A stretch of 34,095 nt of DNA. Source: a virus (lineage: Duplodnaviria > Heunggongvirae > Uroviricota > Caudoviricetes). Every line of letters begins with the position of its first letter. The first letter of the stretch is position 1. Below, piece by piece: positions 3,567 to 26,410 of this stretch. Under the pieces are notes generated by a model, which saw nothing but the letters and a program-made list of their open reading frames with translations, made no database searches and was not told the DNA's origin. A program made the translations under genes and the position numbers. The DNA is taken from IMG/VR virus record IMGVR_UViG_2695420685_000005. One strand, given 5' to 3'.

Positions 3567-3838
3567 GTATTCGTATTGAAATTGGCGAACGTTATGTCGT
3601 TACCAGTGACAGCTTTCAGTTTATTCTCCACGAGAAAAAGAGAGCGGAAAGCGGTAAAAACGCCGGTCAGGAATGGCTGGCGGTGGTTGGTTATTATCCG
3701 AAATTAAGCCAGCTTGTTTCCGGCCTGATGCATCACGATATTCTGACCGGAAGCGCAAAGTCTTTTGCTGATTTAAACGCGCAGGTTGAGCAACTCAGCA
3801 AGCGTTGTTCAGAGGCTTTTGGCTCATATGGCCGTTAA
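3563..3838 (+). CDS. Hypothetical early protein (91 aa)
   Basis: ORF in track, coupled to the upstream gene; its 3' end overlaps the start of A. Confidence 0.45.
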   Translation: MSIRIEIGERYVVTSDSFQFILHEKKRAESGKNAGQEWLAVVGYYPKLSQLVSGLMHHDILTGSAKSFADLNAQVEQLSKRCSEAFGSYGR

Positions 3839-6113
3839 AGCCTCCGGGCGTTTTGTCCCTCCGTCAGCATTTGCCGCAGGCACCGGTGAGACGTTTACCG
3901 GTGCTTATGCATGGAACGCGCCACGCGAGGCCGTCGGGCGCGAAAGACCCCTTACACGTGACGAGATGCGTCAGGTGCAAGGTGTTTTATCCACGATTAA
4001 TCGCCTGCCTTACTTTTTGCGCTCGCTGTTTACTTCACGCTATGACTACATCCGGCGCAATAAAAGCCCGGTGCACGGATTTTATTTCCTCACATCCACT
4101 TTTCAGCGCCGTTTATGGCCGCGTATTGAGCGCGTGAATCAGCGCCATGAAATGAACACCGACGCGTCGTTGCTGTTTCTGGCAGAGCGTGACCATTATG
4201 CGCGTCTGCCGGGGATGAATGACAAGGAGCTGAAAAAGTTTGCCGCCCGTATCTCATCGCAGCTTTTCATGATGTATGAGGAACTCTGCGATGCATGGGT
4301 TGATGCACATGGCGAGAAAGAATCGCTGTTTACAGATGAGGCGCAGGCGCATCTGTATGGTCATGTTGCTGGCGCTGCACGTGCTTTCAATATTTCCCCT
4401 CTCTACTGGAAAAAATACCGTAAAGGACAGATGACCACGAGGCAGGCATATTCTGCCATTGCCCGTCTGTTTAACGATGAGTGGTGGACTCATCAGCTTA
4501 AAGGCCAGCGTATGCGCTGGCATGAGGCGTTACTGATTGCTGTCGGGGAGGTCAATAAAGACCGTTCTCCTTATGCCAGTAAACATGCCATTCGTGATGT
4601 GCGTGCACGCCGCCAGGCAAATCTGGAATTTCTTAAATCGTGTGACCTCGAAAACAGGGAAACCGGCGAGCGCATCGACCTTATCAGTAAGGTGATGGGC
4701 AGTATTTCTAATCCTGAAATTCGCCGGATGGAGCTGATGAACACCATCGCCGGTATTGAGCGTTACGCCGCCGCAGAGGGTGATGTGGGGATGTTTATCA
4801 CTCTGACCGCGCCGTCAAAGTATCACCCGACACGTCAGGTCGGAAAAGGCGAAAGTAAAACCGTCCAGCTAAATCACGGCTGGAATGATGAGGCATTTAA
4901 TCCAAAGGATGCGCAGCGTTATCTCTGCCGCATCTGGAGCCTGATGCGCACGGCATTCAAGGATAATGATTTACAGGTCTACGGTTTGCGAGTCGTCGAG
5001 CCACACCACGACGGAACGCCGCACTGGCATATGATGCTTTTTTGTAATCCACGCCAGCGTAACCAGATTATCGAAATCATGCGTCGCTATGCGCTCAAAG
5101 AGGATGGTGACGAAAGAGGAGCCGCGCGAAACCGTTTTCAGGCAAAACACCTTAACCGGGGCGGTGCTGCGGGATATATCGCGAAATACATCTCAAAAAA
5201 CATCGATGGCTATGCACTGGATGGTCAGCTCGATAACGATACCGGCAGGCCGCTGAAAGACACTGCCGCGGCTGTTACCGCATGGGCGTCAACGTGGCGC
5301 ATTCCGCAATTTAAAACGGTTGGCCTGCCGACAATGGGGGCTTACCGTGAACTACGCAAATTGCCTCGCGGCGTCAGCATTGCTGATGAGTTTGACGAAC
5401 GCGTCGAGGCTGCACGAGCTGCCGCAGACAGTGGTGATTTTGCGTTGTATATCAGCGCGCAGGGTGGGGCAAATGTTCCGCGCGATTGTCAGACTGTCAG
5501 GGTTGCCCGTAGTCCGTCGGATGAAGTTAACGAGTACGAGGAAGAAGTCGAGAGAGTGGTCGGCATTTACGCGCCGCATCTCGGCGCGCGTCATATTCAT
5601 ATCACCAGAACGACGGACTGGCGCATTGTTCCGAAAGTACCGGTCGTTGAGCCTTTGACTTTAAAAAGCGGCATCGCCGCGCCTCGGAGTCCTGTCAATA
5701 ACTGTGGAAAGCTCACCGGCGGTAATACTTCGTTGCCGGTTCCCACGCCTTCTGAGCACGCCGCAGCAGTGCTTAATCTGGTTGATGACGGTGTTATCGA
5801 ATGGAATGACCCGGAGGTCGTGAGGACGCTCAGGGGTGCATTAAAACACGGACTGAGAAGACCAAACCGTCAGCAAAGAAACGGAAGCCCGTTAAAACCA
5901 CATGAAATTGCACCATCGGCCAGACTGACCCGGTCAGAAAGAATGCAAATTACCCGTATCCGCGTTGACCTTGCTCAGAACGGTATCAGGCCGCAGCGAT
6001 GGGACCTTGAGGCGCTGGCGCGTGGCGCGACCGTAAATTATGACGGGAAAAAGTTCACATATCCGGTCGCTGATGAGTGGCCGGGATTCTCAACAGTAAT
6101 GGAGTGGACATGA
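3828..6113 (+). CDS. A: Replication initiation protein A, HUH rolling-circle endonuclease (761 aa from ATG at 3828; ORF track opens at 3786)
   Basis: HUH motif (PHWHMMLF) and paired active-site tyrosines (GYIAKYISK); N-terminus MAVKASGRFVPP matches P2 gpA. Confidence 0.92.
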   Translation: MAVKASGRFVPPSAFAAGTGETFTGAYAWNAPREAVGRERPLTRDEMRQVQGVLSTINRLPYFLRSLFTSRYDYIRRNKSPVHGFYFLTSTFQRRLWPRIERVNQRHEMNTDASLLFLAERDHYARLPGMNDKELKKFAARISSQLFMMYEELCDAWVDAHGEKESLFTDEAQAHLYGHVAGAARAFNISPLYWKKYRKGQMTTRQAYSAIARLFNDEWWTHQLKGQRMRWHEALLIAVGEVNKDRSPYASKHAIRDVRARRQANLEFLKSCDLENRETGERIDLISKVMGSISNPEIRRMELMNTIAGIERYAAAEGDVGMFITLTAPSKYHPTRQVGKGESKTVQLNHGWNDEAFNPKDAQRYLCRIWSLMRTAFKDNDLQVYGLRVVEPHHDGTPHWHMMLFCNPRQRNQIIEIMRRYALKEDGDERGAARNRFQAKHLNRGGAAGYIAKYISKNIDGYALDGQLDNDTGRPLKDTAAAVTAWASTWRIPQFKTVGLPTMGAYRELRKLPRGVSIADEFDERVEAARAAADSGDFALYISAQGGANVPRDCQTVRVARSPSDEVNEYEEEVERVVGIYAPHLGARHIHITRTTDWRIVPKVPVVEPLTLKSGIAAPRSPVNNCGKLTGGNTSLPVPTPSEHAAAVLNLVDDGVIEWNDPEVVRTLRGALKHGLRRPNRQQRNGSPLKPHEIAPSARLTRSERMQITRIRVDLAQNGIRPQRWDLEALARGATVNYDGKKFTYPVADEWPGFSTVMEWT

Positions 6114-6771: not shown

Positions 6772-6928
6772 AGAACGCCGCCAGTCGTGAAACTTGTTTT
6801 CAGGGTTGGCGGGGTGAACAACTCATCTGCGGAGGCGTTAGCATACTAGGTGATAATCTTGAGCATTGAACCTTTTGCATAGATCCCTTATTGTTCTGGG
6901 GATTTTTTACCGCTTCGTAGGGAAAGTG

Positions 6929-8056
6929 ATGGAAACTGGAATCGTTACGTTCTTTGATATCAAGGCTTGTGGTTTTTACAGACTGAAGAAAAACGCAGAA
7001 GAATTAGAGCATAAATTCGGAACACTTGATGAGATCTTTGACGCGTTGCAGGCTTGGCTTGATGACAAAAGCGTTGAGGAGTCAATTCCGTGGGATACGG
7101 GAACTCATCCGCTAAGAGCCAGAACTTACTCACGAGGAGTGGCTGTCGATCCCGATACAAAAGATCGGGTGATGGTAATGTATCGCGCATTAGGTTCCGC
7201 GAAGGGACGTTTGCACGCTGTTAAAAAAAACGCACCTGTTGGTGCTACAGAAAATGATACAGTAAAGACAGAAACGAATGGAAAAGACTATATTTGGGTT
7301 GAGCCATGTTATTATTGGGTAATTCCTGAATATAACAAGATTGCATCCATTATATTTCCTCATTCAGGTGCAGATACACCGAGGTTAAGCAATTATATTT
7401 TTAATTTTGTAGTAAATCACGGTGATTTTGGTAGGGAAAAGGATACTACCTCATTTACTAGAGCTCGTTCTTCATGTTCGGAAGATGACATTCTTATTTC
7501 TAAAACAATTTTCAAGCATGTAGATGAAAATGGACGCAAGTGTAATTGCGTTTTTAAATTTAAGGCTGAAGTGACGAAGGTTAATAAACCAGGGACGAAT
7601 ATTCTTGATGTACGAGATAAAATTGTTCAGACAATTATTCGTGATACTACGGTCGCAAAAGTTGAGGATACCCGGCAACCGTTATTACGTCTGGTGAGTA
7701 ATGTACTATCGGATTTCTTGGGAACAGAACAAACCAAGTTTACAAAACCTAAAAAAATTGAGGTTCGAGTAGATGGTGCTCCTTCGGAAGAGGAGATAAA
7801 ACAACTATTGGATAGAAATGTAGATGATGTTGACTGGGTTGATGTTGGCTTTGTTCTTAAAGATTCATCTCGCCCATTATGGTTAAAAAAATATATGGCG
7901 AGAACTGCATTAATTGTCAGCGATTCTACCGGGGATGAGCATTTCTCTCCAGAAAAACTCCTTCATGAAATAAAGGCTGTCCGTGATGATTTACTCCAAA
8001 CAATCCTTTATAATGAAGAGGTGGAAGAAAAATCTTTAAAAACGGCGGAGGCATAA
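6929..8056 (+). CDS. AT-rich cargo gene 1: soluble protein of unknown function (375 aa from ATG at 6929; 396 aa if the upstream TTG at 6866 is used), candidate defence component
   Basis: Long ORF with sharply lower GC than the flanking phage genes; no transmembrane segments or classical P-loop seen; stop overlaps the start of the next gene (taaATG); sits at the P2 tin/old hotspot. Confidence 0.6.
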   Translation: METGIVTFFDIKACGFYRLKKNAEELEHKFGTLDEIFDALQAWLDDKSVEESIPWDTGTHPLRARTYSRGVAVDPDTKDRVMVMYRALGSAKGRLHAVKKNAPVGATENDTVKTETNGKDYIWVEPCYYWVIPEYNKIASIIFPHSGADTPRLSNYIFNFVVNHGDFGREKDTTSFTRARSSCSEDDILISKTIFKHVDENGRKCNCVFKFKAEVTKVNKPGTNILDVRDKIVQTIIRDTTVAKVEDTRQPLLRLVSNVLSDFLGTEQTKFTKPKKIEVRVDGAPSEEEIKQLLDRNVDDVDWVDVGFVLKDSSRPLWLKKYMARTALIVSDSTGDEHFSPEKLLHEIKAVRDDLLQTILYNEEVEEKSLKTAEA

Positions 8057-8596
8057 ATGTCACCTCAAACAAGTAAGGATTTAAAGGCATTGATAATACA
8101 ATGGAAATGGAATTTGTTAATTCTATTTCTAATTGCTGTGGCCTCCTATTGGCTGAAAGCTTATGTTAACTATAGTGATATAAAAGATATACTGGGTGTT
8201 TTGCAAAACATATCTGCTGCAATTTTTACCATAGTTGGATTATGGATTGGTTTTTTATATCCGAATGCAATTGCAAGCATTGTCAATGATGATGTTGATT
8301 ACATAAAGAATACGAAAGATGCACCTCGAATTGAAAAGCTAATTTACGTTGTAATTACTTCAGCAGTAGTAATGCTTTCGATTTTGTTTGTTTATCTGTT
8401 TAAATCAATAGGCTCTGTGCTATCGAGTTCAGTGGTGTATTCTGATCTTATTAGAATGATTGGAATCACCTTTGTTTATTTTATGTGCTGGTTACAAATA
8501 AAGTGTGTGTTTAGTGTTATTTTAAGCAACTTATCATTTGCAAACAATCTTCACTCAAGAATAGTAAATGCTAGGTTCTCTCATCATGATGATTGA
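8057..8596 (+). CDS. AT-rich cargo gene 2: small integral membrane protein with about 4 TM helices (179 aa), candidate effector
   Basis: Four hydrophobic stretches (about residues 18-33, 52-72, 95-115, 134-157); translationally coupled to cargo gene 1; same low-GC island. Confidence 0.6.
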   Translation: MSPQTSKDLKALIIQWKWNLLILFLIAVASYWLKAYVNYSDIKDILGVLQNISAAIFTIVGLWIGFLYPNAIASIVNDDVDYIKNTKDAPRIEKLIYVVITSAVVMLSILFVYLFKSIGSVLSSSVVYSDLIRMIGITFVYFMCWLQIKCVFSVILSNLSFANNLHSRIVNARFSHHDD

Positions 8597-8925: not shown

Positions 8926-9960
8926 TCAGCCGTTGTCAGTGTCCAGTGAGTAGTTTTTAAATCGGATGACCTCCTGACCGAGCCAGCCGTTTATCTCGCG
9001 GATCCTGTCCTGTAACGGGATAAGCTCATTGCGGACAAAGACCTTTGCCACTTTCTCAATATCACCCAGCGACCCGACGTTCTCCGGCTTGCCGCCCATC
9101 AACTGAAAGGGGATGCGGTGCGCGTCCAGCAGGTCTGCGGCGCTGGCTTTTTTGATATTAAAAAAATCGTCCTTCGTTGCCACTTCACTGAGCGGGATAA
9201 TTTTAATACCGTCGGCTTTTCCCTGTGGGGCGTAGAGAAATAGGTTTTTAAAGTTGTTGCGGCCTTTCGACTTCACCATGTTTTCGCGGAGCATTTCGAT
9301 ATCGTTGCGATCCTGCACGGCATCAGTGACGTACATGATATATCCGGCATGAGCGCCGTTTTCGTAATACTTGCGGCGGAACAGCGTGGCCGACTCATTC
9401 AGCCAGGCAGAGTTAAGGGCGCTGAGATATTCCGGCAGGCCGTACAGCTCCTGATTGATATCCGGCTCCAGCAGGTGAAACACGGAGCCGGGCGCGAAGG
9501 CTGTCGGCTCGTTGAAGGACGGCACCCACCAGTAAACATCCTCCTCCACGCCACGGCGGGTATATTTTGCCGGTGAGGTTTCCAGTCTGATGACCTTACC
9601 GGTGGTGCTGTAACGCTTTTCCAGAAACGCATTACCGAACACCAGAAAATCCAGCACAAAGCGGCTGAAATCCTGCTGGGACAGCCACGGGTGCGGGATA
9701 AACGTTGAAGCCAGAATATTACGTTTGACGTAAATCGGTGAGCTGTGATGTACGGCAGCACGCAGGCTTTTTGCCAGACCGGTAAAGCTGACCGGTGGCT
9801 CATACCATCTGCCGTTACTGATGCACTCGACGTAATCCAGAATGTCACGGCGGTCGAGTACCGGCACCGGCTCACCAAAGGTGAATGCTTCCATTTTCGG
9901 GGCGCTGGCGGTCATTTTTTTTTCCGCAGGTTGCTGTGTTTTCCCTTTTTTCTTGCTCAT
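8926..9960 (-). CDS. Q: Portal protein Q (344 aa)
   Basis: Size, position and leftward orientation next to cos match P2 Q. Confidence 0.88.
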   Translation of the reverse strand: MSKKKGKTQQPAEKKMTASAPKMEAFTFGEPVPVLDRRDILDYVECISNGRWYEPPVSFTGLAKSLRAAVHHSSPIYVKRNILASTFIPHPWLSQQDFSRFVLDFLVFGNAFLEKRYSTTGKVIRLETSPAKYTRRGVEEDVYWWVPSFNEPTAFAPGSVFHLLEPDINQELYGLPEYLSALNSAWLNESATLFRRKYYENGAHAGYIMYVTDAVQDRNDIEMLRENMVKSKGRNNFKNLFLYAPQGKADGIKIIPLSEVATKDDFFNIKKASAADLLDAHRIPFQLMGGKPENVGSLGDIEKVAKVFVRNELIPLQDRIREINGWLGQEVIRFKNYSLDTDNG

Positions 9961-11732
9961 CAGTAAAACTCCAGAATGGTGGATGTCAGCGGGGTGCTGA
10001 TACCGGCGGTGAGTGGCTCATTTAACAGGGCGTGCATGGTCGCCCAGGCGAGGTCGGCGTGGCTGGCTTCCTCGCTACGGCTGGCCTCATAGGTGGCGCT
10101 GCGTCCGCTGCTGGTCATGGTCTTGCGGATAGCCATAAACGAGCTGGTGATATCGGTGGCGCTGACGTCATATTCCAGACAGCCACGGCGGATAACGTCT
10201 TTGGCCTTGAGCACCATTGCGGTTTTCATTTCCGGCGTGTAGCGGATATCGCGCGCGGCAGGATAGAACGAGCGCACGAGCTGGAACACGCCGACACCGA
10301 GGCCGGTGGCATCAATACCGATGTATTCGACGTTGTATTTTTCGGTGAGTTTGCGGATGGATTCCGCCTGAGTGGCAAAGTCCATGCCTTTCCACTGGTG
10401 ACGCTCAAGTATTCTGAATTTGCCACCGGCCACCACCGGCGGTGCCAGTACCACGCATCCGGCGCTGTCGCCACGGTGTGACGGGTCGTAACCAATCCAT
10501 ACCGGACGTGAGCCGAACGGATTGGCGGCAAACGGCGCATAGTCTTCCCATTCTTCCAGCGTGTCGACCATGCAGCGTTGCAGCTCCTCGAACGGGAACA
10601 CCGACGCCTTGTCGTCAACAAATTCACACATGAACAGGTTTTTAAAATCGTCGGCGCTGTTTTCACGTTTGAGCTGTTCAATGTCGAACAGCGTGCAGCC
10701 GCCTTTCAGGGCGTCCTCAATGGTGACAATCTGCCGCCACTGGCCGTCCGCACAGAGAAGCCCACCGGCAAGGGCGTTATGACTGACGTCGATTTCCACG
10801 CGTTCGGCGGCGCTGGCGCGTCCCCGGTTAAACAGTTCACCCGACCAGAACGGGTAGGCGTCGTGCGCCAGCGTGGACGGGGTGGAGAAATAGGTCGAGC
10901 GCAGGTGACTCTGTGAGGCCATACCTGATGCCACCTTACGCAGTACCTGAAAATTCGGGATCCAGAAAATCTCGTCGACGTACAGGTCGCCGTTATGACT
11001 TTGTGCGGTGTTGGAGTTGGTGCCGAGAAAAATCAGTTTTGCGCCGTTATTGCCCAGGACAATCGGGTCACCGGTAAGGTCAACGTCAACCAGACGGGCA
11101 AAGGCGATGATGTATTCGCGGAACACATACGCCTGCGTTTTACTGGCCGACAGAAAAATCTGGTTATGACCTGTTTTCAGGGCGCGCAGCAGCGCCTCGC
11201 GGGAAAAATAAAACGTCGCGCCAATCTGGCGGGATTTCAGGATATCGCGGATGCGGTGCTCAAGCCCGGCGCGATACCAGTGCAACTGATATTCGAAAGA
11301 CTGCTCAAAGAAAATCTGCTCCAGCTTTTCGATAGCCTCGTCGCTGAAAAAATTCTTTTTCGGTTTGCGACGCCCGCCTTTGTTGCGGTTAGCGACGTTC
11401 GGATTAAGGTCTGCCTCGTTGCCGGTCTGGCTGTAGCGGTTTACCCGTGCCAGTCGTTCAATCTGGCGTCCGAGCAGGTCAATTTCCTTGAAGTCACCGC
11501 CGGTTTTCTGCGGTTTGATAATGAGCTGGGTCAGCCGCGCTTCCAGACTCATTTCGACACGGCTGATGGGGGCAACGCTGTCCCAGCCGTCGCGCTGTTT
11601 CCAGCTCTGCACCGTCGGGCGTTTCATCTGCAACATGGCGGCAATCTGCGGCACGGAAAACCCCTGCCAGTACAGCAGCGCCGCCTGACGACGCGGGTCG
11701 TGCAAAAGAGTGGTGTCTGTGGTGATGGTCAT
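9960..11732 (-). CDS. P: Terminase large (ATPase/nuclease) subunit P (590 aa from ATG at 11732)
   Basis: N-terminus MTITTDTTLLHDPRRQAALLYWQGF matches P2 P; paired with Q on the minus strand. Confidence 0.9.
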   Translation of the reverse strand: MTITTDTTLLHDPRRQAALLYWQGFSVPQIAAMLQMKRPTVQSWKQRDGWDSVAPISRVEMSLEARLTQLIIKPQKTGGDFKEIDLLGRQIERLARVNRYSQTGNEADLNPNVANRNKGGRRKPKKNFFSDEAIEKLEQIFFEQSFEYQLHWYRAGLEHRIRDILKSRQIGATFYFSREALLRALKTGHNQIFLSASKTQAYVFREYIIAFARLVDVDLTGDPIVLGNNGAKLIFLGTNSNTAQSHNGDLYVDEIFWIPNFQVLRKVASGMASQSHLRSTYFSTPSTLAHDAYPFWSGELFNRGRASAAERVEIDVSHNALAGGLLCADGQWRQIVTIEDALKGGCTLFDIEQLKRENSADDFKNLFMCEFVDDKASVFPFEELQRCMVDTLEEWEDYAPFAANPFGSRPVWIGYDPSHRGDSAGCVVLAPPVVAGGKFRILERHQWKGMDFATQAESIRKLTEKYNVEYIGIDATGLGVGVFQLVRSFYPAARDIRYTPEMKTAMVLKAKDVIRRGCLEYDVSATDITSSFMAIRKTMTSSGRSATYEASRSEEASHADLAWATMHALLNEPLTAGISTPLTSTILEFY

Positions 11733-11905
11733 GAATACCTCGCCGTGATGAATACACGGCAAGGCTACTGAGTCGCGCCCCGCGATTCGCTAAGGTGCTG
11801 TTGTGTCAGTGATAAGCCATCCGGGACTGATGGCGGAGGATGCGCATCGTCGGGAAACTGATGCCGACATGTGACTCCTCTAATCACTATTCAGGACTCC
11901 TGACA

Positions 11906-20598: not shown

Positions 20599-22728
20599 AT
20601 GAGCACAAAATTCAAAACCGTTATCACCACTGCCGGTGCAGCAAAGCTGGCAGCGGCAACCGCACCGGGAGGGCGGAAGGTCAACATTACCACGATGGCC
20701 GTCGGGGATGGCGGTGGTAAATTGCCTGTCCCGGATGCCGGACAGACCGGGCTTATCCACGAAGTCTGGCGACATGCGCTGAACAAAATCAGTCAGGACA
20801 AACGAAACAGTAATTATATTATCGCAGAGCTGGTTATTCCGCCGGAGGTGGGCGGTTTCTGGATGCGTGAGCTTGGCCTGTACGATGATGCGGGAACATT
20901 AATTGCCGTGGCGAACATGGCCGAAAGTTATAAGCCAGCTCTTGCCGAAGGCTCAGGGCGTTCGCAGACCTGTCGCATGGTCATCATCGTCAGCAGTGTG
21001 GCCTCAGTGGCGCTGACCATTGACACCACAACGGTGATGGCGACGCAGGATTACGTTGATGACAAAATTGCAGAGCACGAACAGTCACGACGTCACCCGG
21101 ACGCCTCGCTGACCGCAAAAGGTTTTACTCAGTTAAGCAGTGCGACCAACAGCACGTCTGAAACACTGGCCGCAACGCCGAAAGCGGTAAAGGCCGCATA
21201 TGACCTTGCTAACGGGAAATATACTGCGCAGGATGCCACCACGGCGCGAAAAGGCCTTGTTCAGCTCAGTAGTGCGACTAACAGCACGTCTGAAACGCTC
21301 GCCGCAACGCCAAAAGCAGTAAAGACAGCATATGACCTTGCTAACGGGAAATACACTGCACAGGACGCCACCACAGCGCGAAAAGGGCTTGCTCAGCTCA
21401 GTAGCGCCACCAACAGCGATTCTGAAACGCTTGCGGCAACGCCAAAGGCGGTAAAGGCAGCATATGACCTCGCTAACGGGAAATATACCGCACAGGATGC
21501 CACCACGGCGCGAAAAGGTCTTGTCCAGCTCAGTAGCGCCACCAACAGCGATTCAGAAACGCTTGCGGCAACACCAAAGGCGGTAAAGGTCGCGTATGAC
21601 CTTGCTAACGGGAAATATACTGCGCAGGATGCCACCACGGCGCGAAAAGGCCTTGTTCAGCTCAGTAGTGCGACTAACAGCACGTCTGAAACGCTCGCCG
21701 CAACACCAAAAGCGGTGAAGTCTGCCTATGACAATGCTGAGAAACGTCTTCAGAAAGATCAGAACGGTGCGGATATTCCTGATAAAAGATTATTCCTGCG
21801 CAATATTGGTGCAACAAATTCAACAACCATGTCTTTTAGTGGTGGTACAGGATGGTTCAGGCTGGCAACTGTAACCATGCCACAGGCCAGTTCCGTGGTT
21901 TACATAAGTCTGATTGGTGGTGCTGGATATAATGTTAACTCCCCTATGCAGGCTGGTATATCTGAACTTGTTCTTCGTGCGGGAAATGGAAATCCAAAAG
22001 GTCTTACTGGTGCGTTATGGCGACGGACATCGGTTGGATTTACTAATTTTGCATGGGTGAATACATCCGGTGATACCTATGATGTTTATGTTGAAATAGG
22101 TAATTACGCCACAGGTGTTAATATTCAGTGGGATTATACCAGTAACGCCAGCGTAACGATTCATACATCACCATCTTATACAGCGAATAAACCAACAGGC
22201 CTGACAGATGGAACTGTATATGTAATTTACAGTTCGCACATTAAACCGACTGCTGCTGATGTTGGGGCGTTGTCATTATCTGGAGGTCAATTGAATGGTG
22301 CACTGGGCATCGGAACATCCAGTGCTCTTGGCGGTAACTCGATTGTTTTGGGTGATAATGACACAGGCTTTAAACAAAATGGCGACGGTAATCTGGATGT
22401 TTATGCTAATAACGTTCATGTTATGCGCTTTGTCTCCGGTAGCATTCAAAGTAATAAAACCATAAATATTACGGGGCGTGTTAATCCCACTGATTACGGT
22501 AACTTTGACTCCCGCTATGTCCGGGATATCCGGCTTGGTGGTGCCGCCACATACAAACCTGCGAACAATGGCATGACATGGACACATCAGGTACCGTCAG
22601 GGTGTGTATATACCGGCATTATTGTTCAGGATACCGGCTCAAACTCTGCCGATAACATTGGTGGCGTATATTACAGACCGGTGCAGAAATACATTAACGG
22701 GACATGGTATAACGTGGCGCAGGTATAA
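20599..22728 (+). CDS. H: Tail fibre protein H (709 aa) with conserved N-terminus, internal 40-aa repeats and a lower-GC C-terminal receptor-binding region
   Basis: N-terminus matches P2 H; five tandem 40-aa repeats; GC drops in the 3' third. Confidence 0.88.
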   Translation: MSTKFKTVITTAGAAKLAAATAPGGRKVNITTMAVGDGGGKLPVPDAGQTGLIHEVWRHALNKISQDKRNSNYIIAELVIPPEVGGFWMRELGLYDDAGTLIAVANMAESYKPALAEGSGRSQTCRMVIIVSSVASVALTIDTTTVMATQDYVDDKIAEHEQSRRHPDASLTAKGFTQLSSATNSTSETLAATPKAVKAAYDLANGKYTAQDATTARKGLVQLSSATNSTSETLAATPKAVKTAYDLANGKYTAQDATTARKGLAQLSSATNSDSETLAATPKAVKAAYDLANGKYTAQDATTARKGLVQLSSATNSDSETLAATPKAVKVAYDLANGKYTAQDATTARKGLVQLSSATNSTSETLAATPKAVKSAYDNAEKRLQKDQNGADIPDKRLFLRNIGATNSTTMSFSGGTGWFRLATVTMPQASSVVYISLIGGAGYNVNSPMQAGISELVLRAGNGNPKGLTGALWRRTSVGFTNFAWVNTSGDTYDVYVEIGNYATGVNIQWDYTSNASVTIHTSPSYTANKPTGLTDGTVYVIYSSHIKPTAADVGALSLSGGQLNGALGIGTSSALGGNSIVLGDNDTGFKQNGDGNLDVYANNVHVMRFVSGSIQSNKTINITGRVNPTDYGNFDSRYVRDIRLGGAATYKPANNGMTWTHQVPSGCVYTGIIVQDTGSNSADNIGGVYYRPVQKYINGTWYNVAQV
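21118..21720 (+). repeat. Five tandem copies of a 120-bp (40-aa) unit inside H, phage tail-fibre repeat type
   Basis: Unit KGLVQLSSATNS[T/D]SETLAATPKAVKxAYDLANGKYTAQDATTAR repeated in frame, with copies starting near 21118, 21238, 21358, 21478 and 21598. Confidence 0.85.
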
Positions 22729-22731
22729 TTT

Positions 22732-23259
22732 ATGCAGCATTTAAAAAATATTACGGCGGGTAATCCAAAAACGGTTGAACAATATCAATTGACAAAGGAC
22801 TTTGATGTTGTCTGGTTTTTTTCAGAAGATGGTAAGAACTGGTACGAAGAACAAAAGTATTTTGCTGATGACACGATAAAAATAGCGTACGACAAAGATA
22901 ATATCATCCGCTATGTGGAAAAGGATGTGACAGCTATCAGACCGGATGGATTAAGTGTTGTTGAAGTGACGGATATTACTGCTAACCGACGGGCGGACAT
23001 TTCAGGGAACTGGATGTTTAAGGATGGCACAGTGATTAAACGAATTTATACGGCAGAGGAATTGCAGCAGCAGGGAGAAAATCGGAAAGCCAGACTTCTA
23101 GCAGATGCTGAATCCGTGATTTTGCCGCTGGAGCGTGCTGTCAGGCTGAATATGGCAACAGATGAGGAGCGTAGCCGACTTAAAACATGGGAACGCTACA
23201 GCGTTCTGGTCAGTCGTGTGGATCCTGCCAATCCTGAATGGCCGGAAATGCCGCAATAA
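22732..23259 (+). CDS. G: Tail fibre assembly chaperone G (175 aa)
   Basis: Directly downstream of H; size matches P2 G / Tfa-type chaperones. Confidence 0.8.
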
Positions 23260-23624
23260 GTTGTATGAGCTTACATATCTATAGCACAGAGTAAAGTCTA
23301 CTCTGACAGTCTGCTCTGTGCTAGGAGCAGATGTAGTTAATATCATAGTATCTGTTGAACAAATTAGAGCGAGCAAGGGAGAATTGTGTATAATTTTGTT
23401 TGAGTATTTCTATACATGTGTTATAGATATTTAAAAGTTGATGCGTTAATTTTATTCGGAGGTCTAATGTCTGTAGGTGCGTATGAAAATGATTATTTAG
23501 ATGAGTTGAGATAGTTTGTGCAGAAAAAAGAAAATAGTATTTTTATGCACTCCAAGAAAGAATTAAATATTATAACATTTTTCATCCAACTTCCATTGAG
23601 AAGATAAAATAAAGAGGTTTTTGA

Positions 23625-24953
23625 GTGAAACTTGAATTTTTGGTTCTTGTCACAAATGATGATTCTTTTTGCAATAGTAAAAAAGCTTTTATTGACTTTC
23701 TAAAAATTGACTCGCTTATCTCAATCACGGGGCGCAAACTAACATATAAGAAAACCCCAAGATCGAATCCGTTAATTACGGTTAAATTCAATGTTGAAAC
23801 GAATAACATCCCATCCAACAAAGAACGTTATTTCATAATTGCATTGGAAAACACAAGCGAAGAATTAATTGATGAATTTTCTGAGGTTGGAGATAAAATA
23901 AAAGAATTATGCAAAAGGATAAACCCTGAATCTACAGTAATAAATATTCTTTGGGATGATATTGGAAGATATTATGCGCATAAGTCTTACCCTATAATAA
24001 ATGATGTTGAAAACGTAATGAGGAAATTAATAAGTAAATTTATGCTTATTAATGTAGGCATGGCTTGGTCAAAGGAAGCCATTCATCCAGACTTAGTGAA
24101 AAAAATCGAAAAATTTGAAGAAGATGATGTGTATTTGAATGATCTTTACAAGCTTGATTTCATAAATCTATCAGAAGTTTTGTTCCAAAAGAAGAGAGAT
24201 ATAACTCTGGATGAGCTTGATAGGATTCTTATCAAAACGAATTTTGATGAGTCCGATAAAAATAAAATACTTAAATATGTACCCAAATCAAATTGGGAGA
24301 AGTATTTCTCTACTCTCCTGGAGGAGAACTCGCAACATCTTGAAAGAAAATGGGAGCGACTTTACAAATTGAGAAATAAGGTTGCACATAACAGATTTTT
24401 AACTAAACAGGATTTTTGTGAAATAAGAAGTTTATCAAACCAAGTAAAAGAAATCCTCAATGGTGCAATAAACAAGCTAGGGGAGATTGATCTTGATGAG
24501 GAAGACCGCAATCAAATTATATATAGTTATCAATCCCAAAATCCAATTGCAATAGAACATTTGGCCGAAAAATCTGTTGCGGAATTTTACATAAGAAATG
24601 GATTCGAAGTTGACCTGTCACCCTCTTTGGGATGTAGGCCAACTATAGATTTAATAGTTAAAAAAGAAAGTGATGTTATTGCTGTGGAAATTAAAAGCTT
24701 TTCTTCTCGGGGTTTATTGACCTCAATGAGGACTCGCTTATTTTCTGCTATCCAACAGCTTGAAAAGTTTTTAGAGCGGGAAGATATAACACAAGGAGAA
24801 ATTATAGCTGTAGTGAGGGGTGGTATTGATGAGGAATTAATGCCTAAACTCATAGGGCTATTAACTTTTATCAGAAGTACAGTAAACTCTACAATTTCCA
24901 TCAATATTGGTACTCTAGATATTGATGATAATTTTGAACTAATTGATTTATAG
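23625..24953 (+). CDS. AT-rich cargo gene at the Z/fun position: 442 aa protein with a HEPN-like Rx4H motif and a C-terminal PD-(D/E)xK-like nuclease motif, candidate single-gene defence/abortive-infection protein (GTG start)
   Basis: Very low GC against the flanking tail genes; motif LYKLRNKVAHNRF (R-x4-H); C-terminal RPTIDLIV...DVIAVEIK (D...ExK); aagagg ribosome-binding site about 8 nt before the GTG. Confidence 0.6.
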   Translation: MKLEFLVLVTNDDSFCNSKKAFIDFLKIDSLISITGRKLTYKKTPRSNPLITVKFNVETNNIPSNKERYFIIALENTSEELIDEFSEVGDKIKELCKRINPESTVINILWDDIGRYYAHKSYPIINDVENVMRKLISKFMLINVGMAWSKEAIHPDLVKKIEKFEEDDVYLNDLYKLDFINLSEVLFQKKRDITLDELDRILIKTNFDESDKNKILKYVPKSNWEKYFSTLLEENSQHLERKWERLYKLRNKVAHNRFLTKQDFCEIRSLSNQVKEILNGAINKLGEIDLDEEDRNQIIYSYQSQNPIAIEHLAEKSVAEFYIRNGFEVDLSPSLGCRPTIDLIVKKESDVIAVEIKSFSSRGLLTSMRTRLFSAIQQLEKFLEREDITQGEIIAVVRGGIDEELMPKLIGLLTFIRSTVNSTISINIGTLDIDDNFELIDL

Positions 24954-25094
24954 CTATATAAATATTTAAAAAACAAACCATGGTTTACTAATCGTGTGAC
25001 CATGTCCGCTCCTCGCTCAAAGCAGACTGTCAGATTTGATAACTTTTGGGCTATGTAAATTGTCAGTCGGAAAATGAGTGAGTACAAATCAAGG

Positions 25095-25123
25095 CAGGCG
25101 GGCTGATTGCCCGCCTTTTCTTT
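25095..25123 (+). terminator. Rho-independent terminator between the cargo gene and FI
   Basis: ggcgggc-tgatt-gcccgcc stem-loop followed by ttttctttat. Confidence 0.55.
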
Positions 25124-25219
25124 ATCTGTTGTTTCATCCACTGACCAGCCAGGTCAAATAGCGTCTCATGCACTACCCAACGGAAAATAGTTGCACCCAT
25201 TAACCACGGAGTTAAACGG

Positions 25220-26410
25220 ATGAGTGACTATCATCACGGCGTGCAGGTGCTGGAAATTAACGACGGCACCCGCGTCATTTCCACCGTATCCACGGCCATT
25301 GTCGGCATGGTCTGCACGGCCAGCGATGCAGATGCGGAAACCTTCCCCCTCAATAAACCTGTGCTGATTACCAATGTGCAGAGTGCAATTGCAAAGGCTG
25401 GTAAAAAAGGCACGCTGGCGGTATCGTTGCAGGCCATCGCTGACCAGTCAAAACCGGTCACCGTTGTTGTGCGTGTGGAAGACGGCACCGGCGACGACGA
25501 GGAAACGAAACTCGCGCAGACCGTTTCCAATATCATCGGCACCACCGACGAAAACGGTCAGTACACCGGACTGAAAGCCCTGCTGGCGGCGGAGTCGGTA
25601 ACCGGTGTTAAACCACGAATTCTCGGCGTACCGGGACTGGACACCAAAGAGGTGGCTGTTGCACTGGCATCAGTCTGTCAGAAGCTGCGTGCTTTCGGGT
25701 ATATCAGCGCATGGGGATGTAAGACCATTTCCGAGGTGAAAGCCTACCGCCAGAATTTCAGCCAGCGTGAGCTGATGGTCATCTGGCCGGATTTCCTCGC
25801 ATGGGATACGGTCACCAGTACCAACGCCACCGCGTATGCCACCGCCCGTGCGCTGGGTCTGCGCGCTAAAATCGACCAGGAGCAGGGCTGGCATAAAACG
25901 CTGTCCAACGTCGGGGTAAACGGTGTTACCGGCATCAGCGCATCTGTATTCTGGGATTTGCAGGAGTCCGGCACCGATGCTGACCTGCTTAACGAGTCAG
26001 GCGTCACTACGCTGATTCGCCGCGACGGTTTCCGATTCTGGGGTAACCGTACCTGCTCTGATGACCCGCTGTTCCTCTTTGAAAACTACACCCGCACCGC
26101 GCAGGTGCTGGCCGACACGATGGCTGAGGCGCACATGTGGGCGGTGGACAAGCCCATCACCGCAACGCTGATTCGCGACATCGTTGACGGCATCAATGCC
26201 AAATTCCGTGAGCTGAAAACAAACGGCTATATCGTGGATGCGACCTGCTGGTTCAGCGAAGAATCCAACGATGCGGAAACCCTCAAGGCCGGAAAACTGT
26301 ATATCGACTACGACTATACACCGGTGCCTCCTCTTGAAAACCTGACCCTGCGCCAGCGTATTACCGATAAATACCTGGCAAATCTGGTCACCTCGGTTAA
26401 CAGCAATTAA
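25220..26410 (+). CDS. FI: Tail sheath protein FI (396 aa)
   Basis: Size and synteny with P2 FI. Confidence 0.9.
   Translation: MSDYHHGVQVLEINDGTRVISTVSTAIVGMVCTASDADAETFPLNKPVLITNVQSAIAKAGKKGTLAVSLQAIADQSKPVTVVVRVEDGTGDDEETKLAQTVSNIIGTTDENGQYTGLKALLAAESVTGVKPRILGVPGLDTKEVAVALASVCQKLRAFGYISAWGCKTISEVKAYRQNFSQRELMVIWPDFLAWDTVTSTNATAYATARALGLRAKIDQEQGWHKTLSNVGVNGVTGISASVFWDLQESGTDADLLNESGVTTLIRRDGFRFWGNRTCSDDPLFLFENYTRTAQVLADTMAEAHMWAVDKPITATLIRDIVDGINAKFRELKTNGYIVDATCWFSEESNDAETLKAGKLYIDYDYTPVPPLENLTLRQRITDKYLANLVTSVNSN

Follow-up and report, generated by a model that had tools for sequence, protein, structure and literature searches.

The window analysed here, the whole 34,095-nucleotide (nt) stretch of IMG/VR virus record IMGVR_UViG_2695420685_000005, is a complete P2-like prophage. 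Between its tail-fibre chaperone gene G and its sheath gene FI lies a single-gene insert that encodes a 442-residue protein, which combines an invariant HEPN domain with a fast-evolving C-terminal domain of the PD-(D/E)xK fold and which we consider a candidate anti-phage defence protein. The open reading frame is exactly the one described in the first-pass annotation, and RefSeq holds the same coding sequence, from a prophage 99.9% identical to this one, as the 'HEPN domain-containing protein' WP_053895392.1. A Shine-Dalgarno sequence, AGAGG (23613-23617), lies 7 nt 5' of the GTG start codon, and the starting residues MK(L/I/T)EF are common to all homologs. That annotation had also placed the gene, as a low-GC single-gene cargo with a leader of its own, at the Z/fun position between G and FI; the drop in G+C content, the flanking genes and a pair of inverted repeats all agree with this placement. 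G+C content is 0.29-0.36 across the gene (23300-25000), against 0.52-0.60 in both flanks; overall values are about 0.32 and about 0.55. The gene and its surroundings are as follows.

23625-24953, plus strand: coding sequence of the 442-residue protein, GTG start, stop codon at 24951-24953
23342-23624, plus strand: AT-rich leader carried by the cargo, with a perfect TATAAT preceded by TG at 23389-23394 and the AGAGG named above
23297-23331, no strand: left border repeat of the Z-region hotspot, pairing with 25005-25039, internal hairpin GTCYGC-N12-GCRGAY
25005-25039, no strand: right border repeat of the hotspot, partner of 23297-23331, hairpin GTCCGC-N12-GCAGAC
25096-25116, plus strand: terminator-like GC hairpin followed by a T run
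22732-23259: tail fibre assembly gene G (Caudo_TAP), the upstream neighbour
25220-26410: tail sheath gene FI, the downstream neighbour

The limits of the insert were set by comparison with P2-like phages bearing other cargo. Since the P2 backbone is conserved for about 76 nt past G and in the final 218 nt ahead of FI, the insert spans approximately 23342-25001, with the backbone resuming at about 25002. Some 283 nt of the 365-nt gap between G and the start codon are cargo-borne leader. By megablast, the hotspot flank is present in 1032 of 5426 complete E. coli genomes and the cargo in only five of them, all copies being at least 99.7% identical. One of these five, E. coli E275a (NZ_CP035865; locus L001, 4137-6000), has G interrupted, just 5' of the cargo, by the insertion sequence IS2; the HEPN gene is still intact there, in a prophage that is probably defective.

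Leader and border repeats

The TATAAT at 23389-23394 was found by eye and is a candidate promoter. A sigma-70 promoter scan gave fewer sites than in shuffled sequence, with one weak site at 23506-23535. Leader and gene are kept together in other genomic contexts (loci L009 and L012), and the mobile unit comprises, besides the gene, roughly 300 nt of leader and 85 nt of trailer. A structured or antitoxin RNA in the leader was rejected: the leader folds no more strongly than shuffled sequence (z = +1.45), Rfam at E <= 1 returned two chance-level matches only and no abiF motif (RF03085), and tandem repeats of the ToxI kind, as in type III antitoxins, were not found in it. A 184-residue antisense open reading frame (24587-25141) is spurious, its frame not being kept open in homologs.

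The two border repeats, 1673 nt apart, are the arms of a 35-nt inverted repeat and are 83% complementary. Because the GenBank record of the P2-EC30 Z-region (AJ512676) annotates equivalent elements, a 'left inverted repeat' and a 'repeat_region', on either side of an unrelated cargo reading frame, the bracketing seen here is the one already known for the Z/fun slot. The border elements are hairpins in their own right, of the palindromic form GTCYGC-N12-GCRGAC, and the different Z-region cargo of P2-EC30, ORF1, has the same palindromic element on its flanks. The Citrobacter unit, too, lies between the arms of an inverted repeat (24 nt, arms 1657 nt apart); the inner halves of the border element accompany the gene into these non-P2 islands, where two full hairpins lie 3' of the gene. 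Copies of the palindromic element were located at these positions.

Locus L009 (Citrobacter): 878-901, 2559-2582, 2569-2592 and 2612-2635
Locus L016: 83-112 and 1945-1974

The distribution of the border elements suggests hairpin-mediated or site-specific exchange of cassettes. Past the right repeat, within the conserved backbone between cargo and FI, the hairpin at 25096-25116 (an 8-base-pair stem with seven GC pairs, then TTTTCTTT) probably ends the cargo transcript.

Three domains under unequal constraint

An AlphaFold2 model built from 40 homologs, with a mean predicted local distance difference test score (pLDDT) of 79.6, divides the protein into three domains.

23625-23948, plus strand: N-terminal domain, residues 1-108, ferredoxin-like beta-alpha-beta fold, highly conserved
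23949-24539, plus strand: HEPN domain, residues 109-305, Swt1/AbiD clade, with R250-N251-K-V-A-H255 at 24372-24389
24540-24950, plus strand: C-terminal domain, residues 306-442, PD-(D/E)xK fold, Hjc/YraN/AHJR-like, hypervariable
24567-24569, 24648-24650, 24687-24689 and 24693-24695: codons of the C-terminal residues E315, D342, E355 and K357

The first-pass annotation had read two nuclease-type motifs from the translation, an R-x4-H arrangement of the HEPN kind and a PD-(D/E)xK pattern, and both belong to real folds. The HEPN domain is an all-alpha, up-down helical bundle; the C-terminal domain has the alpha-beta-beta-beta-alpha-beta core, and E315, D342, E355 and K357 lie in the E. coli copy on the elements expected of them (alpha1, beta2 and beta3). 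Overlooked at that stage was the conserved ferredoxin-like domain of 108 residues at the N-terminus, in which F15, C16, F22, F25, L26, E67, R68, F70 and E75 are invariant.

Among 5.8 billion proteins searched there are 276 homologs, nearly all about 440 residues long and aligned end to end, in Enterobacterales, Vibrio, Aeromonas, Pseudomonas, Chromobacterium and other genera, from Gamma- to Betaproteobacteria. Residue conservation was counted in 116 full-length homologs. Seven HEPN residues are invariant in all 116, namely R250, N251, H255 and N256 at the motif and E129, N130 and R133 on the first helix, and they stay more than 90% conserved in 150 representatives of 50%-identity clusters. In the C-terminal domain D342 is the only invariant catalytic residue: 109 homologs keep E315, 87 have E and another 8 have D at position 355 (E or D in 95), and 92 have K at position 357. 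All of E-D-[ED]-K is retained by 79 of the 116, and ExK is lost in 37, including close relatives 59-67% identical to the E. coli protein (AVEVL in P0023, AVDVH in P0046, AVNIK in P0060). The catalytic PD-(D/E)xK residues are thus not conserved across these orthologs as expected of an obligatory enzyme. Mean identity to the query is 66% in the N-terminal domain, 71% in HEPN and 31% in the C-terminal domain, and pairwise Nei-Gojobori ratios of nonsynonymous to synonymous substitution rates (dN/dS) are, in the same order, 0.03-0.15, 0.04-0.16 and 0.24-0.56. Column entropy rises from about 0.5-1.5 bits to 2-3 bits past residue 320, and 55-64% of the positions at which the query differs from its five closest homologs fall in the C-terminal domain, which makes up 31% of the length. 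Purifying selection acts on the entire gene, with constraint by a wide margin weakest in the C-terminal domain.

Profile matches to the single sequence are weak. HEPN_Swt1 scores 20.6 bits on the 442-residue protein, below its cut-off of 27.5, and no curated PD-(D/E)xK profile matches at threshold (AHJR-like 16.6 bits versus a cut-off of 26.1, PDDEXK_10 12.7 versus 21.2). Among 40 members of the family, HEPN_Swt1 matches 37 at E <= 0.01 (best 1e-6), and the Pfam families Hjc, UPF0102 and AHJR-like match three, two and two. It could be argued, from the single-sequence Pfam hits that all fall under gathering thresholds and from the rarity of the cargo (5 of 5426 E. coli genomes), that the motifs are chance matches or that the gene is a decaying, functionless remnant. 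That explanation is hardly credible, being refuted by the breadth of the family, the invariant motifs and dN/dS: the full-length family extends from Gamma- to Betaproteobacteria, 443 representatives of the wider family described below match at better than 1e-30, two thirds of the protein are under strong purifying selection (dN/dS 0.03-0.16), and the AlphaFold2 models are confident.

Beyond the full-length homologs, searching 1.84 billion cluster representatives with the family profile gave 1192 matches at E <= 1e-3 (443 of them at E <= 1e-30), and most of the distant ones align only to profile positions 1 to about 305. Among the best 150 representatives, 20 align from end to end, restriction-endonuclease-fold (REase-fold) tail included, and 93 match the N-terminal and HEPN domains only and continue into at least 60 unrelated residues. 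The C-terminal tails sort into 56 clusters. In the largest (n = 47, within P0157-P0268) a second R-N-x3-H motif follows after about residue 305 in 42 of the 47 tails, against about 4 in 123 in a shuffled-tail control, and some of its tails have Pfam HepT-like or RiboL-PSP HEPN matches (ten proteins scanned). Since the largest tail cluster carries a second HEPN motif, the commonest architecture of the superfamily is N-terminal domain, HEPN, HEPN; in the branch of the E. coli protein the resolvase-like domain occupies the position of the second HEPN. Elsewhere the tail is a long ankyrin-repeat array (P0168, 619 residues, E = 2.5e-92) or cysteine-rich and Zn-ribbon-like (P0185), further tails have no assignment, and P0088 and P0103 have helix-turn-helix (HTH) extensions. 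The N-terminal and HEPN domains form one core unit and the C-terminal tail is exchangeable. Plasmids gave three distant core-only matches; relatives that share only the core occur on plasmids of Nostoc, Persicobacter and Clostridium.

These patterns bear on the proposal that the gene fuses two nuclease modules. Both folds stand, and it is their equal footing that has weakened, with ExK lost in 37 of 116 homologs and a tail that is fast-evolving and exchanged. Taken at full strength, the proposal is a dual-nuclease effector in which a HEPN ribonuclease (RNase) and a PD-(D/E)xK deoxyribonuclease (DNase) are both catalytic and degrade the RNA and DNA of invader or host. Structural neighbours of the C-terminal domain (Hjc, SfsA, CdiA-CT, PaqCI and McrC) are active nucleases, HEPN-REase fusions recur in conflict systems (PMC3710099), and all four catalytic residues sit on the correct secondary-structure elements of the E. 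coli copy, with the full set kept in 79 of 116 homologs and D342 in all of them. Against this, intact full-length homologs, some of them 59-67% identical, do without E355 and/or K357, non-nuclease modules such as ankyrin repeats replace the domain in relatives with the same core, and an essential catalytic domain is not normally the least constrained part of a protein. We hold a dual nuclease to be unlikely; it stays a live rival for the E. coli copy because its E-D-E-K set is intact. The C-terminal domain resembles rather a module for recognition or assembly, which may or may not still cut DNA.

Genomic contexts and proposed function

Twelve homolog loci were inspected for context. No neighbouring gene is conserved across them; the gene is a single-gene unit. 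Homologs sit in the variable or defence regions of mobile elements and have no fixed housekeeping neighbourhood, and the settings outside E. coli include the following.

Rahnella, locus L002, 8001-9329: in a P2-like prophage, in the interval between portal and gpA (A-Q/TO, the old-tin slot)
Serratia marcescens, locus L015, 9001-10368: in a P2-like prophage, in the S-V interval (the orf30 slot)
Providencia, locus L003: beside the integrase of another prophage
Klebsiella, locus L013: an opposite-strand moron within a phage replication module
Pseudomonas, Vibrio, Serratia fonticola and Raoultella: islands with integrases, resolvases or insertion sequence (IS) elements
Citrobacter, loci L009-L011, a 93% identical copy: beside AAA_15+HNH (Septu-like), reverse transcriptase+ATPase (retron-like), Mrr and DUF4145 HEPN genes

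The family fills three accessory slots in three genera: the Z-region in E. coli, A-Q/TO in Rahnella and S-V/orf30 in Serratia. Z-region, TO-region and orf30 are the three regions where P2-like phages carry foreign genes (PMC3091744), and the fun locus has been reported as a second defence-enriched hotspot of P2 (PMC9519451). G+C content of the gene is 0.30-0.40 while that of the host flanks ranges over 0.34-0.57; such independence from the host and the rarity in E. coli are signs that the gene is horizontally mobile. A GTG or TTG start is used in eight of nine independent homolog loci (L001-L012). Conserved weak start codons are unusual and would fit selection for low expression of a dose-sensitive, potentially toxic product. 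In Thiofilum sp. (L006, 9496-10473; L007, 1649-2626), UQ_con (ubiquitin-conjugating E2) and Cofilin_ADF matches lie directly 3' of the homolog and are followed by IS605/TnpB-like genes; a cofilin-like gene is odd for a bacterium.

A gene always found with mobile elements, carrying non-ATG starts that suggest a dose-sensitive product, might be a moron with a task other than defence: an addiction toxin of the prophage or island, a weapon against competitors, or an RNA-processing factor of the element itself. HEPN domains do also serve as toxins of toxin-antitoxin systems (PMC3710099). However, neither an antitoxin-like neighbour nor any conserved partner is present in the 12 loci, the leader lacks repeats of the type III antitoxin kind and structured RNA, and the 184-residue antisense frame is not conserved. 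A secretion signal and an immunity gene are both absent. The slots occupied by the gene have, moreover, experimentally yielded defence genes (PMC9519451), and the closest copy clusters with Septu-like, retron-like and Mrr genes. We regard a role outside defence as quite improbable.

The reading that we favour, with moderate confidence, is anti-phage defence in which HEPN does the effector work and the C-terminal domain serves recognition or assembly. The system would be a single-gene one, most likely acting by abortive infection, carried as a horizontally mobile moron in the Z/fun hotspot, and a role in defence or abortive infection fits both the genomic contexts and the hotspot status of the fun locus. 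HEPN enzymes are metal-independent RNases whose active site consists of two R-x4-6-H motifs, supplied either by a dimer or by two domains in one chain, as in Cas13, and many of them are abortive-infection or toxin effectors (PMC3710099). Having one HEPN domain only, the E. coli protein would have to pair with a second copy of itself. The C-terminal domain is a good candidate for both cue recognition and HEPN pairing because Hjc-type domains are dimeric DNA-structure binders. In the mechanism we propose, the invariant HEPN domain would act as the effector, a metal-independent RNase, and the ferredoxin-like domain, a conserved unit with it, would probably bind RNA or a ligand or serve as its regulatory partner. 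The Hjc/YraN-like domain probably senses an infection cue, either a DNA structure or a phage protein; alternatively, it would join two protomers so that their HEPN domains make a composite active site. In a lysogen the protein would be present at a low level and kept inactive. Infection would switch it on, and it would then cut phage and host RNA, with the infecting phage presumably stopped by an abortive outcome.

Several observations weigh against a defence function so divided between the domains. The E-D-E-K set is intact in the E. coli copy, and a C-terminal DNase role is possible for that reason; the dN/dS of the domain is below 1, and its variability could come from relaxed constraint instead of an arms race. 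Every Pfam match of the 442-residue protein falls under curated cut-offs, and its sole PADLOC hit covers 49 residues (profile positions 60-108 of 192) of a candidate, PDC-M34B. The gene was not found in sequenced phages (tblastn, 50,697 records). WP_053895392 and four peptide strings are absent from the DefensePredictor tables, in a check that covered part of the supplements, and our literature search met neither a mention of WP_053895392 nor an experiment on the family nor a phage-defence characterisation of a Swt1-type HEPN.

A bolder version of the defence reading, which we put forward as doubtful, takes the resolvase fold to be a sensor of DNA structure, catalytically optional, that gates the HEPN RNase on a plug-in chassis of some 1200 protein clusters. 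The C-terminal socket of this chassis may accept a second HEPN, an Hjc-like REase fold, ankyrin repeats or Zn ribbons, and a Holliday-junction-resolvase-like domain may have been turned from an enzyme into a fast-diversifying sensor. Binding of branched or phage-specific DNA, or of a phage protein, may bring about dimerisation and with it a two-HEPN RNase site. One polypeptide may in this way couple a DNA-structure trigger to RNA degradation, and travel from hotspot to hotspot as a cassette bounded by hairpins.

If the gene is protective, it adds to the defence repertoire a broadly distributed, compact single-gene system of about 1.7 kb with its own leader, the full-length form being found in Gamma- and Betaproteobacteria and core-only relatives on Nostoc, Persicobacter and Clostridium plasmids. 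It would also be a clean example of modular evolution, with a fixed RNase core and a swappable, fast-evolving C-terminal module, and the loss of ExK in one third of members would show a resolvase-like fold used for recognition and not catalysis. For P2 biology, one cassette uses all three variable slots of P2-like prophages as well as non-phage islands, and its hairpin-repeat bounds bear on how hotspot cargo is exchanged. As a candidate it belongs to a familiar class, the single-protein HEPN abortive-infection or defence genes, and its surprise for a specialist is moderate.

The rest of the prophage has, besides tail genes, the backbone genes listed here together with the cargo of a second hotspot.

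249-1262: integrase
3786-6113: gpA
8926-9960: portal
9960-11762: terminase
6866-8056: cargo protein of 396 residues, PADLOC PDC-M18A (E = 5.6e-38)
8057-8596: cargo protein of 179 residues, PADLOC PDC-M18B (E = 3.3e-16)

The second hotspot is the old/tin slot between gpA and portal, where a two-gene cargo of low G+C content (0.39-0.41) fills 6866-8596; neither of its proteins has a Pfam match. Since this cargo also matches PADLOC candidates, the one prophage bears two uncharacterised defence candidates. In tail fibre protein H (20599-22728) a repeat of about 44 residues (…TAQDATTARKGLVQLSSATNSTSETLAATPKAVKAAYDLANGKY…) occurs five times in tandem, and in the 3' third of the H gene G+C content goes down to about 0.41-0.47, which suggests a swapped receptor-binding tip.

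Comparison with known systems

The first-pass annotation could put no system's name to the protein, and in our comparisons too no characterised defence family is matched by it; profile and structure searches likewise turned up no orthologue of a characterised non-defence moron. By location its nearest counterparts are P2 Fun(Z) and the three PD systems that Vassallo et al. located at the fun locus, which occupy the same G-FI slot between the same bracketing inverted repeats. The proteins themselves are unrelated, however, and no PADLOC profile for PD-T4, PD-T7 or PD-lambda matches the 442-residue protein. The only defence-database profile to match all 40 members tested is PADLOC PDC-M34 protein B (best E 9e-9), over the first HEPN helices (residues 120-168). 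PDC-M34 differs in being a multi-gene candidate, whereas the homologs in the 12 loci have no conserved partner beside them; no experimental validation of PDC-M34 was found in the literature.

Closer in kind are AbiD, AbiD1 and AbiF (Abi_2), lactococcal abortive-infection proteins of the Abi2/Swt1 HEPN clade of Anantharaman et al. 2013 (PMC3710099), in which AbiD and AbiF are the members characterised in defence. Like them, the gene stands alone on mobile elements and its product falls in the same HEPN clade and shares the R-N-x3-H motif, and the PADLOC AbiD profile matches 3 of 40 members. Unlike them, it has an additional ferredoxin-like N-terminal domain and a PD-(D/E)xK C-terminal domain, and the sequence similarity is marginal. 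Membership of Abi_2 was rejected: Pfam Abi_2 gives no match at E <= 10, and the abiF RNA (RF03085) is absent upstream at E <= 1.

The EC042_2821 family, known from computational description, joins a DUF3644 HEPN domain to an EC042_2821-like REase C-terminus, and fusions to HTH and Zn-ribbon modules have been noted in it (PMC3710099). EC042_2821 itself (WP_001222856, E. coli 042; locus L017, 3189-4502) has 437 residues and is encoded by a solitary gene in an island at ssrA, directly after the integrase and adjoined by a DNA methyltransferase. The resemblance lies in the succession of N-terminal region, HEPN and C-terminal REase fold, and HTH and Zn-ribbon (here Zn-ribbon-like) additions are seen in both groups. 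Membership was nonetheless rejected, with an hhalign probability of 0.1; PF12358 (DUF3644, E = 5e-47) and PF18740 match EC042_2821 and neither matches the 442-residue protein. Since the two are not detectably homologous and fall in different Pfam families, the HEPN-REase architecture has arisen at least two times, and EC042_2821 is a convergent single-gene candidate.

Finally, the proposed logic of a HEPN RNase with an appended sensor, and with a need for two adjacent R-x4-H motifs, is that of DS-11, DS-38, ApeA, Csm6/Csx1 (CARF+HEPN) and Cas13 (two HEPN domains). DS-11 (CBS+HEPN) and DS-38 (HEPN with Zn ribbons) are validated E. coli systems (PMC13092281). Homology to DS-38 (BLASTP E = 1.7) and to DS-28B (hhalign probability 7%) was rejected; with DS-11, DS-38 and DS-28, all of them validated, nothing is shared beyond the motif. 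What sets our protein apart from DS-11, DS-38, Csm6 and Cas13 is the nature of its sensor candidates, which are ferredoxin-like and Hjc-like and not CBS, CARF or CRISPR RNA (crRNA). The Abi2/Swt1 HEPN clade has been linked structurally to the HEPN domains of Cas13 (PMC12165695), and the major branch of the superfamily resembles Cas13 in having two HEPN domains per chain, here behind a ferredoxin-like N-terminal domain.

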